64,000 bases of DNA from sequence record NC_054902.1; one strand, given 5' to 3'. The notes under the pieces are model-generated. The model made no database searches. It had not been told where the DNA came from and saw nothing but the letters and a program-made list of their open reading frames with translations. The translations under genes and the position numbers were made by a program. Shown here one piece after another: positions 407-16,573 of the stretch; position 1 is the first letter of the stretch; every line of letters begins with the position of its first letter. This stretch comes from Enterobacteria phage Aplg8.

Positions 407-538
407 TACATACTCCTCTGAATCATATCAATAATGTTGTTTACCAAATTATAAGTAAACATTGGGTAATTATATTGAATCATCACATACACAACAAACA
501 AAACTTTCATTCTCTTCTCCTTGGCAGTTGACAAGATT

Positions 539-1417: not shown

Positions 1418-1804
1418 TTATTCGAGGGAAAGAAGATACTTACTCTGGTAAAACATTCCAGTAATATCATCTATCGTGCTTTGGATGGCTGGAGGCATTT
1501 CTTTATAAATGCTGTTAGATTGGTCTAGTATGTGATCAATCATTTTAATTGTGTCGGTAGGAAGTTTACTGGCATCTGGAATTGAAGGTGTGTATTTTCT
1601 ACCAGAATACCCCAAATATTGCTCACCAAATTTATCAATCAAATCTGGCAACTCGGAGAAAATAAAATCGTATGCTTTGTGTCTAGCATAACTTTTAGTT
1701 TCAAAATGTGCAGAATGAAAATAAGCTTGTGCAGCCATTAATAAACCTAAGTATTCATCTGCCTTTGAAGGTTTTCCACTTTGTGAAAAGTCGCTGAATT
1801 TCAT
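1418..1804 (-). CDS. hypothetical protein (128 aa), immediately downstream of rI
   Basis: ORF track; 4-nt overlap with rI stop. Confidence 0.6.
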
Positions 1805-2094
1805 TCAGTCTCCAATTTAATGTTCATAATTCTAGCGTATGATTGTGCCATCTCCGCGCCTCGTTCTATACATTCAAAATCAGAAGAGCACGGGTCATTT
1901 TTATAGGTCGTTCTCATAAAACTATAGAATTGTTCAGACGATTCTACGCTTTTATTTTCAAAAAGCATATAAACGTGCCTAATACCAGATTCCATAAATT
2001 TATCAAAATGAGGATCGACATTCGCTTCAATCGATGGAGATAAAACAAATGACAATCCTAGCATGGCAAATAGTGCCGTTGCTTTTAAGGCCAT
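1801..2094 (-). CDS. rI: lysis inhibition regulator RI (97 aa, N-terminal signal-anchor)
   Basis: Translation MALKATALFAMLGLSFVLSPS... recognised as T4 RI; hydrophobic N-terminus, 97 aa. Confidence 0.75.
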   Translation of the reverse strand: MALKATALFAMLGLSFVLSPSIEANVDPHFDKFMESGIRHVYMLFENKSVESSEQFYSFMRTTYKNDPCSSDFECIERGAEMAQSYARIMNIKLETE

Positions 2095-2361: not shown

Positions 2362-2943
2362 CTAACCAAGCTTTTTAGTTAATTCATTCCAATGTTTTCT
2401 GCACAAAGAAACATAAATTTCATCACCAATACAGATTTGATTACCTTCTTTAACTGGTGTTCCATCTTCCATTAATCGAGCTGTCATAATCGCTTTTTTG
2501 CCGCAATGACAAACTGCCTTTAGTTCAATAAGTTTATCTGCAATCGCTAAAAGTTCTTTAGAACCTTCAAACAATTTTCCAGCGAAATCAGTCCTTAATC
2601 CATAAGCCATAACAGGAACATTATATGTATCAACAATTCGGCTTAATTGGTGCACCTGTTCAGTTTTTAAAAACTGAGCTTCATCTACAAATACGCAATG
2701 AATATCTTTTTGTGCTTCAGCCCATTTATAGAACTCGAAAATATCCATATCATCTGTAATAATATTCGCTTCCTGTTTAATTCCAATGCGAGAAACAACT
2801 TCACAGACAGAATCGCGAGTATCAATAGCAGGCTTAAGAACTAATACACTCATTCCACGTTCTTTATAATTATGTGCAGCAGTCAAAAGAGAAGCAGATT
2901 TTCCAGCATTCATTGCTGCATAAGTAAAAATTAAACTCGCCAT
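2362..2943 (-). CDS. tk: thymidine kinase
   Basis: 193 aa; P-loop NAGKSASL, CxxC...CxxC zinc motif, typical type II TK. Confidence 0.95.
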   Translation of the reverse strand: MASLIFTYAAMNAGKSASLLTAAHNYKERGMSVLVLKPAIDTRDSVCEVVSRIGIKQEANIITDDMDIFEFYKWAEAQKDIHCVFVDEAQFLKTEQVHQLSRIVDTYNVPVMAYGLRTDFAGKLFEGSKELLAIADKLIELKAVCHCGKKAIMTARLMEDGTPVKEGNQICIGDEIYVSLCRKHWNELTKKLG

Positions 2944-2952
2944 ATCACCTTC

Positions 2953-3138
2953 TTAAAACGTATTCACATAAGCTATTAATTCATTTTCTTTCTTATCAAA
3001 CCGATCAGCAAATTCTTCCTGCTGTTCGGGAGATAGCGGGCCGTATTCATCATAAAAGGTGTTTGCTTCTGCATGCTCATCTAGAAGTTCATGGATAAGC
3101 TCAAACAATTTATCTTTTTGTTCTTTGCTTAGGCTCAC
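2953..3138 (-). CDS. hypothetical acidic protein (61 aa)
   Basis: ORF track; tightly packed upstream of tk. Confidence 0.55.
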   Translation of the reverse strand: MSLSKEQKDKLFELIHELLDEHAEANTFYDEYGPLSPEQQEEFADRFDKKENELIAYVNTF

Positions 3139-7725: not shown

Positions 7726-8199
7726 TTATTTGAACGATTTAACGTACTGAATAGAACCTTTACTATTCACAAAGGCAATTTTACCATTTTTATTATACAT
7801 TGTAGCAGTACGTTGATAGCCATAAGTTTGTTTACCAGATTGATAACCAACTAATGCAAAATTATCTTCACCCATTTTATTCTGTTTAGCGCGAATGCGT
7901 TCATGGCCATGTGCCATAAGAACCTTAGCATCACCTGTTGCAATGGATCGACGAGTTTTTTCATCTTCAACTGTATTAACAAAGTTGTCAAATGAATCAA
8001 ATTTAGCATGAGATTTATTATACAGTTTTCCATCTACTGCATAATTATATCCCTGCACATCCATCTCAACTTCTGTACCATCATCCAATACAGCAGTGAT
8101 TTTTTGACCTTTTTTAAATTTCAAAAGATCAGTAAAAGATTCAGCAATAATTTGAGAATTAATAGCTGCTTCAGTAATAAATTCTTGATATGTTTTCAT
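7726..8199 (-). CDS. capsid internal protein (CTS-bearing), at the ipIII position
   Basis: 157 aa; N-terminal MKTYQEFITEA capsid-targeting sequence; directly downstream of e. Confidence 0.75.
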   Translation of the reverse strand: MKTYQEFITEAAINSQIIAESFTDLLKFKKGQKITAVLDDGTEVEMDVQGYNYAVDGKLYNKSHAKFDSFDNFVNTVEDEKTRRSIATGDAKVLMAHGHERIRAKQNKMGEDNFALVGYQSGKQTYGYQRTATMYNKNGKIAFVNSKGSIQYVKSFK

Positions 8200-12300: not shown

Positions 12301-12330
12301 ATAGTACCATGGAAGAACAGGGATGTAAAC
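12301..12330 (-). promoter_or_regulatory. T4-type early promoter
   Basis: Minus strand GTTTAC-N18-TGGTACTAT. Confidence 0.45.
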
Positions 12331-12462
12331 CGTTTTGTGAAAAAATTTTAAAAAAGTTTTGGGAATTCTAGGGCAGGGAGGGGCAATTAAATGATAGGAT
12401 AATATATTATAAAGGGTAGAAACTAAATGATGTCTGGAGAGGCCCAGAAAAGCCTAGATGCC

Positions 12463-12493
12463 AAAAAGCCCCAACCTTTCGATCGGGGCTAAG
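12463..12493 (-). terminator. rho-independent terminator, direct-repeat copy 1
   Basis: Minus strand AGCCCCGATCGAAAGGTTGGGGCT + T5; 30/31 identical to copy at 13018..13048. Confidence 0.7.
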
Positions 12494-12497
12494 AATG

Positions 12498-12971
12498 TTA
12501 TTTGATTTGTTTAGCAGACCAAATGCGGTCTTTAATAATTTTTTGGATGTCTTCAACATACTCTAGGTCATGAGCATGTGGATTATCTTTGAAACTATGA
12601 GCTCGCGCAAGTTTCTGGCCTTCGGTCTTAATTATCAAAAGTTCTTTAAGAATTGCTTCATACCTAGAGATAATTCCTTTAGCAATATTTTTTTCTTGTG
12701 TTGCTTTAGGGTCAGCCTTAGGAGCAGGTTTACCTGAAGCCTTTGCAAAAGCAGCTCCAGTAGCAACTAAACTTTTCCAAGCCATACTAACTGCATTCCC
12801 TGTAAATCCTTCGGCTTTCATATCACGAGCAAATTGGAATCGTGATTCATCGGAAGCATCTTTATAGGAATATTTACCCGCGGCAATGGCTGCTTTTGCG
12901 ACAGCTTGAATTTCGGTGCTAGATGCTTCATTTAACACCGCTTCATTTAAAAATTGAGCATATGATTTCAT
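12498..12971 (-). CDS. capsid internal protein-like (CTS-bearing) protein, 157 aa
   Basis: N-terminal MKSYAQFLNEAVLNE resembles T4 internal-protein capsid targeting sequence; own late promoter and terminators. Confidence 0.75.
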   Translation of the reverse strand: MKSYAQFLNEAVLNEASSTEIQAVAKAAIAAGKYSYKDASDESRFQFARDMKAEGFTGNAVSMAWKSLVATGAAFAKASGKPAPKADPKATQEKNIAKGIISRYEAILKELLIIKTEGQKLARAHSFKDNPHAHDLEYVEDIQKIIKDRIWSAKQIK

Positions 12972-13007
12972 CTTATTTCCTGTTTTAATTCGTGGTTTTA
13001 ATATACT

Positions 13008-13015
13008 TATTTATA
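13008..13015 (-). promoter_or_regulatory. T4 late promoter (TATAAATA) on minus strand
   Basis: Exact TATAAATA on minus strand about 37 nt upstream of ATG at 12971. Confidence 0.6.
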
Positions 13016-13017
13016 CT

Positions 13018-13048
13018 AAAAAGCCCCAACCTTTCGGTCGGGGCTAAG
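13018..13048 (-). terminator. rho-independent terminator, direct-repeat copy 2
   Basis: Minus strand AGCCCCGACC-GAAA-GGTTGGGGCT (10-bp stem, GNRA loop) + T5. Confidence 0.75.
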
Positions 13049-13049
13049 C

Positions 13050-13345
13050 CTTGCGGCAACCTTGTCGGGGTTCCACCTGCTAAGGCAAGTGTTTGTACGA
13101 AACGCCGGGATTCGAACCCGGTTATTAAGCAGTTGACGCTACTCAATATTTTTAAAAGGCCATATCTCGACCATATCCGAACGTTCCGTCAAAAACGCTA
13201 CTCGGCTTACGGCAAAGATATTTCCTCGAATCGATAATTCGGTGCGCCGTTTCTGCTGTGATGTAAGAGGGCATCAATAAACGCAAAGATTATTAACGCA
13301 ATTCCTTACTCAGGGAACATCAGTCCGACGACTTACCGGTAGCGA
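13050..13345 (-). ncRNA. putative small stable RNA(s), tRNA-like T-arm present
   Basis: GC-rich non-coding stretch between a terminator and tRNA-Arg; minus strand CCGGGTTCGAATCCCGG at 13105-13121; no SD-led ORF. Confidence 0.3.
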
Positions 13346-13354
13346 CCCGGTTTC

Positions 13355-13705
13355 TTAATATTCTTTTAAAGCATCAATCTGCTCACGGCGTTTACGCCAT
13401 AAATCAATTGCTTCATACGCGGATTCAACATTTCGAATTGGACGGCATTTATATAAAGATTTGTGATTTTGATATTGCGTAGATAACGGAATTTTATCTA
13501 AAAGGTCTTTACGTTCAAAGTATTCGTAACCATCTAAGCCAAATGAACGATTTTTGAGAAATTGCCAATGACCAAATTCGTTTTGAATATAAATATAATC
13601 CGCGTGTTGATAAAGTAAATTAATTTCACGAAATGAGATATGTTTTTCATATTCATTGAAGTAAAATGTTAAATCATGAACTACTAAATAAACATTACCT
13701 TTCAT
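13355..13705 (-). CDS. hypothetical protein (116 aa) downstream of tRNA-Arg
   Basis: ORF track; GAGGAAAAT SD before ATG at 13705. Confidence 0.55.
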   Translation of the reverse strand: MKGNVYLVVHDLTFYFNEYEKHISFREINLLYQHADYIYIQNEFGHWQFLKNRSFGLDGYEYFERKDLLDKIPLSTQYQNHKSLYKCRPIRNVESAYEAIDLWRKRREQIDALKEY

Positions 13706-13723: not shown

Positions 13724-13799
13724 TGGTCGAGGCAGTAGGGATCGAACCTACGACCTAGGACTTAGAAGGTCCTTGCTCTTCCTTCTGAGCTATGCCCCG
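13724..13799 (-). tRNA. tRNA-Arg (anticodon UCU)
   Basis: Hand-folded cloverleaf: acceptor CGGGGCA/TGCCTCG, anticodon loop CTTCTAA, T-loop TTCGATC, encoded CCA. Confidence 0.85.
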
Positions 13800-13803
13800 T
13801 AAT

Positions 13804-13879
13804 TGGGGTGACCGATGGGAGTCGAACCCATGACTACGAGAATCACAATCTCGAGTTCTACCAACTGAACTACGGCCAC
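13804..13879 (-). tRNA. tRNA-His (anticodon GUG)
   Basis: Cloverleaf: acceptor GTGGCCG/CGGTCAC, anticodon loop TTGTGAT, discriminator C73, CCA; -1 nucleotide is U not G. Confidence 0.8.
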
Positions 13880-13993
13880 ATTAATACCTACTCCAACAAT
13901 CAAGATGTCTTCACACGAAATTAAGAGAAGAGTGATCAGTTCAACCCCTATAATCGCGTCAAGTAGATATTAATGTGACAGTTGTCACAAATT

Positions 13994-14068
13994 TGGCGGA
14001 CGTGATAGGATTTGAACCTATAACCAATCGCTTAACAGGCGATCGCTCTGCCATTGAGCTACACATCC
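13994..14068 (-). tRNA. tRNA-Asn (anticodon GUU)
   Basis: Cloverleaf: acceptor GGATGTG/CACGTCC, anticodon loop CTGTTAA, T-loop TTCAAAT, CCA. Confidence 0.8.
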
Positions 14069-14072
14069 AAAT

Positions 14073-14159
14073 TGGTGGGGAGTGATGGAGTCGAACCACC
14101 CGAGTCGCAATGACAATGGATTTACAGTCCACACCGCTACCTCTACGGGATAACTCCCC
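14073..14159 (-). tRNA. tRNA-Tyr (anticodon GUA), type II
   Basis: 87 nt; acceptor GGGGAGT/ACTCCCC, anticodon loop CTGTAAA, long variable arm, CCA. Confidence 0.8.
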
Positions 14160-14171
14160 TAATTCATAATT

Positions 14172-14246
14172 TGGTGGCCCTGGGTGGAATTGAACCACCA
14201 TCTGGCGATTATGAGTCGCTTGCTTGAACCTTCCAGCTACAGGGCC
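14172..14246 (-). tRNA. tRNA with CAU anticodon (Ile2/Met; Ile in T4)
   Basis: Acceptor GGCCCTG/CAGGGCC, anticodon loop CTCATAA, T-loop TTCAATT, CCA. Confidence 0.8.
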
Positions 14247-14247
14247 T

Positions 14248-14323
14248 TGGTGCTGATTGACGGAATCAAACCGCCGACCTTCTCATTACAAGTGAGTTGC
14301 TCTACCTACTGAGCTAAATCAGC
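14248..14323 (-). tRNA. tRNA-Thr (anticodon UGU)
   Basis: Acceptor GCTGATT/AATCAGC, anticodon loop CTTGTAA, CCA. Confidence 0.85.
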
Positions 14324-14328
14324 AAAAC

Positions 14329-14418
14329 TGGCGGAGGCGATAGGATTTGAACCTATGAGTCGCCGGAGCGACTGCCGGTTTTCAAGACCGGTGCATTAAA
14401 CCACTCTGCCACGCCTCC
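14329..14418 (-). tRNA. tRNA-Ser (anticodon UGA), type II
   Basis: 90 nt; acceptor GGAGGCG/CGCCTCC, anticodon loop CTTGAAA, long variable arm, CCA. Confidence 0.85.
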
Positions 14419-14420
14419 AG

Positions 14421-14494
14421 TCTCCATACAAGGATTTGAACCTTGGACCTCCTGATCCCAAATCAGGCGCTCTACCAAACTGAGCTACACGGAG
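14421..14494 (-). tRNA. tRNA-Pro (anticodon UGG)
   Basis: Acceptor CTCCGTG/TATGGAG, anticodon loop TTTGGGA; no encoded CCA; 2 nt from tRNA-Ser (dimeric precursor as in T4). Confidence 0.85.
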
Positions 14495-14503
14495 TAATTA
14501 AAT

Positions 14504-14577
<74 letters not shown>

Positions 14578-14582
14578 AAATT

Positions 14583-14669
14583 TGGTGCGAGAAGTGGGAC
14601 TCGAACCCACAAGGAAATCATTCCGCAGCATTTTAAGTGCTGTGCCTTTACCAATTTGACCATTCTCGC
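14583..14669 (-). tRNA. tRNA-Leu (anticodon UAA), type II
   Basis: 87 nt; acceptor GCGAGAA/TTCTCGC, anticodon loop CTTAAAA, CCA. Confidence 0.85.
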
Positions 14670-14670
14670 G

Positions 14671-14743
14671 CTGGGAATAAAGGACTCGAACCTTTGCATC
14701 TAGCAGTCAAAGTGCTATGCCTTACCAACTTGGCTAATTCCCA
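14671..14743 (-). tRNA. tRNA-Gln (anticodon UUG)
   Basis: Acceptor TGGGAAT/ATTCCCA, anticodon loop CTTTGAC; no encoded CCA; 1 nt from tRNA-Leu (dimeric precursor as in T4). Confidence 0.85.
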
Positions 14744-16285: not shown

Positions 16286-16573
16286 TTACAAAAGATTTTT
16301 AGCAATAATCTTGAGATGTGCCGCAGAAATGTGTTTAGCTTTAAACAACGCAGTTTCTTCAGCAGGAGAGATAACGATTGTAGCACCATCCTTTTTAGCA
16401 GACCACCCATCACCTAGGTAAACAGTACCTTTGATTTCTTCGCCATCAACCAAACTAATCATTGGTTTACCTTCTCGTCCTTTATTTGCTTTAATAACTT
16501 CAGAAGTAAGAGTAGCTTCAGTAATAGTAGAAACCGGGGTAGTTGTAGAAGTAAATTCTTTGAAAGTTTTCAT
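16286..16573 (-). CDS. ipI: internal protein I (anti-restriction, CTS-bearing)
   Basis: 95 aa; translation recognised as T4 IPI; N-terminal MKTFKEF CTS-like leader. Confidence 0.8.
   Translation of the reverse strand: MKTFKEFTSTTTPVSTITEATLTSEVIKANKGREGKPMISLVDGEEIKGTVYLGDGWSAKKDGATIVISPAEETALFKAKHISAAHLKIIAKNLL

Follow-up and report, generated by a model that had tools for sequence, protein, structure and literature searches.

What is encoded by a short gene that stands alone between two nearly identical terminators in a T4-like phage, and how did it come to be there? The question arises in Enterobacteria phage Aplg8 (NC_054902.1), of which we analyzed a single stretch of 64,000 nucleotides, hereafter the window. 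An earlier note, made from the letters of the window alone, had proposed that a minus-strand open reading frame (ORF) of 157 amino acids (aa) is a self-contained, mobile cassette coding for an internal protein that is packaged and injected. The ORF is indeed found at 12498-12971. Its family, here called family A, is present in ~510 phage records and is annotated as hypothetical in all matches listed. We consider it likely that family A is an unnamed T-even internal protein, encoded by one unit of a third ip locus, that is expressed late, packaged by means of a leader, processed by gp21 and injected, most likely to act against host defence.

The first line of evidence lies at the N-terminus. 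In T4 IPIII, the first ten residues suffice for packaging, also of foreign proteins; residues 4 and 7 (Tyr4 and Phe7) play a part in targeting, as residues 8 and 10 do in processing (PMC9026906). The gp21 protease cuts C-terminal to Glu, with an aliphatic residue at position 8 and Glu, not Asp, at position 10, and known capsid-targeting leaders are 10-19 residues long (PMC9026906). A rule made of these four experimentally defined IPIII determinants (positions 4, 7, 8 and 10) was applied to every ATG-started N-terminus in the window. Only 2 of 487 matched, compared to 0.035 expected: the family A ORF and Ip4 (7726-8199). The resemblance to the T4 capsid-targeting pattern that the earlier note had pointed out is thus borne out, all four determinants being present. 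The leader resembles those of T4 IPII/IPIII (MKTYQEFIAE/A, the slash marking the cut), Ip4, Ip6 and Ip7 and, judged by sequence context, offers the gp21 prohead protease two L-N-E sites, after Glu10 and after Glu15.

Homologues were found in T4-like phages only, namely in Tequatrovirus, Mosigvirus, Klebsiella Jiaodavirus, Yersinia phage fHe-Yen9-01 and Cronobacter Muldoonvirus. Leaders in the homologues of these five genera read MKSYAEFLTE, MKTYNEFLMTE, MKFKEFLAE, MLEYSEFLKELFCE and MKSFSSFLNE. Both sequence and length vary, while the aromatic residue 4, Phe7 and the aliphatic residue 8 are kept, and every homologue's leader ends in x-x-Glu right before the conserved mature domain. In all five genera the determinants of the leader persist; the mature parts diverge or are replaced by others. 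Since distant leaders have changed at both the nucleotide and the amino acid level and yet keep the pattern, selection must act on the protein. In five pairwise comparisons the 45 nt that code for the leader showed zero synonymous differences, against a synonymous divergence (dS) of 0.3-0.6 in the rest of the gene, which suggests nucleotide-level constraint or homogenisation of the promoter/leader segment; the leader-coding segment possibly doubles as a recombination linker.

Behind the leader, the predicted mature protein is rich in Lys, and its isoelectric point (pI) of 9.55 compares with 9.0-9.65 for T4 IPI*, IPII*, IPIII* and Ip4. In an AlphaFold2 model of the whole ORF protein (mean predicted local distance difference test score, pLDDT, 77), a disordered leader is followed by an N-terminal domain of three helices (residues 18-71) and then by a Pro/Lys linker (76-87); a helical hairpin (88-154) makes up the C-terminal part. 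The N-terminal domain defines family A; the Klebsiella and Yersinia homologues have a different C-terminal half. For the ORF protein, no significant family emerged from Pfam, NCBIfam or the sequences of solved structures, and its sole match in PHROGs was phrog_2280 (PHROG 2280), function unknown. BLASTP, a comparison that the earlier note had proposed, detected no significant similarity in the mature part to T4 IPII, T4 IPIII or Ip4. A shared leader joined to an unrelated mature part is a known signature of internal proteins (PMC3012670). The ratio of nonsynonymous to synonymous substitution rates (dN/dS) is 0.04-0.13, and the gene is thus under strong purifying selection.

An orthologue has been recorded as particle-associated. 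Yersinia phage fD1 g140 (67942-68415, 157 aa), 96.2% identical to the ORF protein, was particle-associated at the strict threshold when purified virions were subjected to liquid chromatography-tandem mass spectrometry (PMC8309999 Table S3). The same was true of fD1 g129, the protein at the ipII/III locus, and of g146 at the ipI locus, and not of the neighbours g138 and g139 (e.8) (PMC8309999 Table S3). The dataset was obtained with fully tryptic searches (PMC8309999). We take these data as firm support for expression and as modest support for packaging. The publication on phage fPS-65 contains no proteomics.

The gene is set in a distinctive arrangement (Table 1). A direct repeat at 12463-12493 and 13018-13048 matches at 30 of 31 positions and extends to 36 nt with 33 matches (12458-12493 and 13013-13048; spacing 555). 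When a 28-nt repeat pattern was sought with up to three mismatches, just these two sites were found in the window (0 expected). Each copy forms a GC-rich stem of 10 bp that is closed by a GAAA loop and has U5 behind it; the hairpins have energies of -17.7 and -20.3 kcal/mol and are significantly stable (z = -3.3 and -3.6 compared to shuffled sequence). The near-identical terminator hairpins described in the earlier note are therefore real, although its picture of a self-contained unit needs one refinement: the downstream copy belongs to the cassette, but the upstream one is the terminator of the resident tRNA/rnaC operon and lies ~50 nt 3' of the annotated mature rnaC end. Because that terminator is resident, the unit consists of late promoter, ORF and duplicated terminator, placed behind it. 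The upstream hairpin was also considered as an imported unit; this was rejected, as T4, T2 and T6 carry the hairpin without the gene.

The exact late promoter TATAAATA noticed earlier is confirmed as well. It lies 36 nt upstream of the ORF ATG, its first bases (GTAT) fall within the repeat unit, and no early promoter was found in the stretch from the terminator to the ATG. In the window, TATAAATA occurs 25 times, compared to 9.8 +/- 3.2 in shuffles. A lone copy is weak evidence, since about ten chance copies are expected per window, and the one before the ORF is persuasive only because its junction position is conserved in other genera. The terminator-TATAAATA junction is found upstream of the orthologue in Nami, PinkRuby, RB27, KpV477 and Cronobacter phage VP8, and is conserved in Tequatrovirus, Jiaodavirus and Muldoonvirus. 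In the Jiaodavirus and Muldoonvirus orthologues whose upstream region was read, the gene likewise lies downstream of tRNA genes, after the junction. The earlier note had gone on to argue that a late promoter is what a packaged protein would be expected to have. However, Ip1 and Ip4 of the window have early-type GTTTAC...TAnnnT promoters directly upstream, not TATAAATA, and a dedicated late promoter is for this reason no general hallmark of ip genes.

Some of the fetched loci showed further features. In Cronobacter phage vB_Cdu_VP8 (OQ361773), a 72-aa ORF at 2786-3004 of the fetched locus (MKSFTEFLTESADLTLTEAKK..., leader MKSFTEFLTES...) separates the terminator-TATAAATA junction from the family A homologue. 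The two genes share one late unit, and the stop of the 72-aa ORF overlaps the start of the homologue; this ORF is a candidate for a further unannotated internal protein. In Klebsiella phage KpV477 (KX258185, fetched locus 1495-2100), the family A homologue is frameshifted after 78 aa, which reflects either a sequencing error or a pseudogene; in Klebsiella phage KP01 the homologue is intact (177 aa).

Alignment of the locus across T-even phages revealed both empty and filled sites. T4, T2 and T6 have a single terminator copy and no ORF, and T4 runs directly from GGGGCTTTTTGGTATCTAAGCC into the e.8 early-promoter region. The sequence after T4's single hairpin is that which follows the second hairpin copy in the window; compared to T4, the window carries a clean 555-bp insertion made of late promoter, ORF and second terminator copy. 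The empty site in T2, T4 and T6 explains why the family A protein escaped classical T-even work, and shows the gene to be dispensable. We classed the state of the locus by match span in a spread sample of ~700 matching phage records and confirmed selected loci from fetched sequence. The commonest class in the sample was A only (the window, RB27, AR1 and SH7). The site was empty in T4, T2 and T6 (fetched loci) and in RB55 and Sf24 (match span only). In Shfl2 it held a different cassette, B, alone, and in Nami, PinkRuby and ZN18 cassette A was followed by cassette B.

Cassette B codes for a protein of 187-188 aa that starts with MKTYAEFLTEAAKLPSE, is preceded by a AATAAATA motif and has its own, different terminator. 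It is found in 165 phage records and is hypothetical in all matches listed. Alignment of the A and B proteins is confined to residues 1-23 or so. Within a genome, the hairpins flanking A tend to share a variant (GACC/GACC or AGCC/AGCC; TTCC/TTCC in Mosigvirus). Over nine genomes scored (the APCEc01 copies differ in length), mismatches averaged 1.0 within genomes compared to 2.1 between them, with one exception (SH7), in a statistic that ignores kinship. This pattern suggests recombination or gene conversion at the linkers, or concerted evolution of the terminator copies. On this sequence evidence, we regard the stretch from the tRNA-operon terminator to the e.8 early promoter, which forms its right boundary, as a third, variable internal-protein locus.

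The known internal proteins of T-even phages, Ip1-3 of T4 and Ip4-Ip10 of its relatives, are reportedly known from the work of Black and co-workers and of Repoila et al. in 1994, and are also the subject of Silas et al. 2025 (PMC12373910). Family A resembles them in its leader of the MK(S/T)(Y/F)xxF(I/L)xE type, which is 10-19 residues long and ends in a gp21-type x-x-Glu, in its small, basic predicted mature protein that is unrelated to other internal proteins, in being non-essential and patchy, and in lying on the same strand of the same region between gene e and 57B. It differs from them in its position. The named ip genes that could be placed in annotated records (Ip1-Ip7) are all in the two classical loci, ipII/III next to e and ipI next to 57B, while family A occupies a third locus that is empty in T2, T4 and T6. 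Unlike ip1 and ip4, with their early-type promoters, it has a dedicated late promoter behind a strong terminator, and it is unnamed, being PHROG 2280 and known here from sequence. As to the classical loci of the window, Ip4 (7726-8199, minus strand; 156/157 identical to T2 Ip4; Pfam DUF7412) is alone at the ipII/ipIII locus, and Ip1 (16286-16573, minus strand) is identical to T4 IPI.

The earlier note had suggested that the unit was acquired as a mobile moron; the morons of lambdoid phages are typically expressed from a prophage. Like a moron, the family A gene has its own promoter and terminator and has resident transcription units on both sides. For morons, illegitimate recombination is assumed, with no conserved flanks (discussed in PMC2839356), whereas the family A unit has conserved flanks, a dedicated hotspot, a virulent phage as its host and predicted late expression. 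A closer parallel is provided by the promoter-early-stem-loop (PeSL) cassettes of RB49/phi1 and other T4-like phages, in which ORFs come and go through recombination of the promoter/stem-loop motifs on either side of them (PMC2839356; PMC4122927). In both systems a single accessory ORF lies between repeated regulatory motifs with a terminator stem-loop (here the 36-nt repeat), relatives differ by the presence of the ORF, the empty state keeps one motif (as in T4, T2 and T6), the unit is transcriptionally insulated and homologous recombination between the flanking motifs is proposed. A PeSL contains a strong, sigma-70-like early promoter, in contrast to the linker here, which joins a terminator hairpin to a late promoter (TATAAATA or AATAAATA); the repeat is ~36 nt compared to ~100 nt, and the cargo is predicted to be a virion-targeted protein. 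The arrangement thus appears to be the late-gene counterpart of PeSL cassettes. The cassette is thus indeed present in some genomes and absent from others; instead of an autonomous, mobile element, however, it is best seen as a member of a variable tandem array, whose units would be exchanged by PeSL-like homologous recombination at the linkers.

What might such a protein do? IPI* inhibits GmrSD (reviewed in PMC3012670), and IPIII is required on strain ECOR17 and is active in the cytoplasm without its leader (PMC9391042). Ip1, Ip2 and Ip3 each block a distinct GmrSD system, without cross-protection (Silas et al. 2025, PMC12373910). If these proteins are a guide, family A would most likely inhibit one specific nuclease, either of type IV (GmrSD-like) or of some other first-line kind. 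We propose that the gene would be transcribed late from its own TATAAATA promoter and that the N-terminal capsid-targeting sequence would recruit the protein to the scaffolding core of the prohead, where the gp21 prohead protease would cut off the leader after Glu10 and/or Glu15. The basic product of ~15.5 kDa would enter the head together with the DNA and be injected when the next cell is infected, most likely to neutralise a first-line, DNA-targeting host defence; by analogy to Ip1, Ip2 and Ip3, the most probable target would be one given subtype among the type IV restriction enzymes of the GmrSD family. The [late promoter - leader-bearing ORF - terminator] units themselves may be gained, lost and stacked by homologous recombination between the terminator/promoter linkers. 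Our literature search retrieved no paper that names the family A gene as an internal protein, and the sequences of A and B are absent from the supplementary files of Silas et al. (PMC12373910).

Several observations count against this proposal. The anatomy of the unit, its conservation, its insertion/deletion boundaries and the purifying selection are observed in this analysis, while packaging through the leader, cleavage by gp21, injection and an anti-restriction target are what we infer from them and from other phages, not direct results in this phage. Leader residue 6 is Gln, compared to Glu in canonical leaders, and residues 108-110 form an internal L-K-E at which gp21 might, in principle, cut as well. 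Mosigvirus cassette A and all copies of cassette B have AATAAATA, a putative variant, where TATAAATA is expected. The specificity of the fD1 particle set is low: of 277 gene products, 113 carry the label, DenV, NudE and the e lysozyme among them, and in the local region 11 of 32 genes do so (PMC8309999). Fold searches with the model matched only the protein's own family or generic helical hairpins and gave no clue to a target, although a mature part that reveals no target is typical of internal proteins. Finally, five further active GmrSD clusters were inhibited by none of ip1-ip10, and no new pairs emerged (PMC12373910). Because ip1-ip10 gave no new pairs, it is not safe to generalise that an Ip is a GmrSD inhibitor.

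Other explanations of the gene differ in how much of the proposal they retain. The protein could be packaged through its leader and yet have no specific host target, serving as a generic basic internal protein, that is, a DNA counter-ion, a packing aid or a minor component of the scaffold core. The Lys-rich composition and high pI, shared with other internal proteins, would suit such a role, as would the generic helical fold with no clue to a binding site and the contacts reported between internal-protein lysines and packaged DNA (PMC3012670). However, T2, T4 and T6 do without the gene, and its patchy occurrence, together or in alternation with the unrelated cassette B, fits an accessory gene of an arms race and not a packing requirement; moreover, all three functionally characterised T4 internal proteins have specific targets (PMC12373910). 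We therefore think a purely generic role unlikely. A late cytoplasmic accessory protein that is never packaged, with its leader-like 5' end and promoter conserved as a recombination linker shared with ip genes, would explain why the first 45 nt lack synonymous change, and the low specificity of the virion proteomics leaves room for it. But distant leaders have changed, also in length, and still keep aromatic-4, Phe-7, aliphatic-8 and the terminal Glu; ten such residues package foreign proteins in T4 (PMC9026906); and the fD1 orthologue passes the strict particle-associated threshold while its neighbour e.8 does not. This explanation appears to us more improbable still.

That the ORF is spurious, an annotation artefact between two terminators, might be suspected from the lack of a Pfam or NCBIfam family and from the uniform label "hypothetical" in the matches listed. 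This was rejected on the dN/dS of 0.04-0.13 and the detection of orthologue peptides by mass spectrometry; the reading frame is also retained in the homologues of five genera, the AlphaFold2 model reaches the mean pLDDT given above, and the probability that we leave to an artefact is negligible. An injected internal protein thus remains the reading that we prefer.

Table 1. Features of the family A locus, in window positions unless another phage is named
Feature	Position	Strand	Remark
e.8 early promoter GTTTACATCCCTGTTCTTCCATGGTACTAT	12301..12330	-	annotated early promoter in SA20RB
Downstream repeat copy, the cassette's own terminator, AGCCCCGATCGAAAGGTTGGGGC + T5	12463..12490	-	full unit 12458-12493
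Family A ORF	12498-12971	-	157 aa, start MKSYAQFLNEAVLNE; Sf22 gp36
Predicted mature protein (residues 16-157, 15.5 kDa, pI 9.55) + stop codon	12498..12926	-	
Leader MKSYAQFLNE/AVLNE/, codons 1-15	12927..12971	-	Tyr4, Phe7, Leu8, Glu10 present
Shine-Dalgarno AGGA	12978-12981	-	6 nt before ATG; direct sequence reading
Late promoter TATAAATA, T4-type	13008-13015	-	consensus match; directly after upstream terminator
Upstream repeat copy, intrinsic terminator of tRNA/rnaD/rnaC unit, AGCCCCGACCGAAAGGTTGGGGC + T5	13018..13045	-	full unit 13013-13048
rnaC	~13096-13234	-	near-identical alignment to T4 rnaC (NC_000866)
rnaD	~13241-13358	-	near-identical alignment to T4 rnaD (NC_000866)
AATAAATA site, APCEc01	1464-1471		cassette A, Mosigvirus; coordinates of fetched locus
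AATAAATA site, Nami	2054-2061		cassette B; coordinates of fetched locus
AATAAATA site, Shfl2	488-499		coordinates of fetched locus

Over the 1-kb region around the cassette, identity is 99.9% with Shigella phage Sf22 (Tequatrovirus) and 90-98% with hundreds of T4-like coliphages; by these matches the window comes from a Tequatrovirus. Gene order is as in T4: e, nudE, e.3-e.8, rnaC and rnaD, the tRNA cluster, trna.2-4, ipI and 57B. The stable RNAs rnaD and rnaC (13096..13358, minus strand) stand at the 3' end of the tRNA operon, and the RB27 annotation has both. Their positions were set by alignment to T4, and an Rfam scan of the region gave only tRNAs above the gathering thresholds, rnaC and rnaD matching no Rfam family. 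Two minus-strand ORFs of 53 and 44 aa (12985-13146 and 13152-13286) overlap rnaC, rnaD and the terminator. They are listed as hypothetical proteins in several GenBank records (SA20RB_134/135, PinkRuby CDS0142/0143, AR1_138) and are almost certainly mis-annotated stable-RNA genes.

The tRNA cluster itself (13724-14743, minus strand) has 11 tRNAs (Arg, His, Asn, Tyr, Met, Thr, Ser, Pro, Gly, Leu and Gln), compared to 8 in T4, and is without the segB homing endonuclease that T4 and T6 have. Between tRNA-Arg and rnaD, a 116-aa ORF is inserted (13355-13705, minus strand; Sf22 gp37, similar to RB51ORF141) that terminates exactly at the rnaD start. It is present in T2, absent in T4 and T6, and without a Pfam or NCBIfam match.

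Family A is, in our reading, an unannotated member of a well-known kind, which will not surprise a specialist; it is nevertheless widespread, cleanly delimited and directly testable. Two unannotated leader-bearing families, A (~510 phage records) and B (165), are added, together with a putative third internal-protein locus that was invisible to classical T-even genetics. Several active GmrSD clusters are without a known phage inhibitor (PMC12373910), and T2, T4 and T6 provide natural "minus" testers for A and B that could assign new defence/counter-defence pairs. A broader hypothesis, which we hold to be possible but doubtful when taken as a whole, is that the site may be a Straboviridae-wide landing pad for injected-effector cassettes, where units of the form [late promoter - leader - effector - terminator] accumulate side by side and are swapped via ~36-nt linkers in an integron-like but recombinase-free manner, and that A and B are the missing inhibitors of GmrSD clusters, or else of a first-line defence other than GmrSD, by which T2, T4 and T6 are restricted and against which no Ip antagonist is known. 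The locus offers a clean example of cassette exchange at terminator/late-promoter linkers and would extend the PeSL idea from early genes to late, virion-targeted ones.

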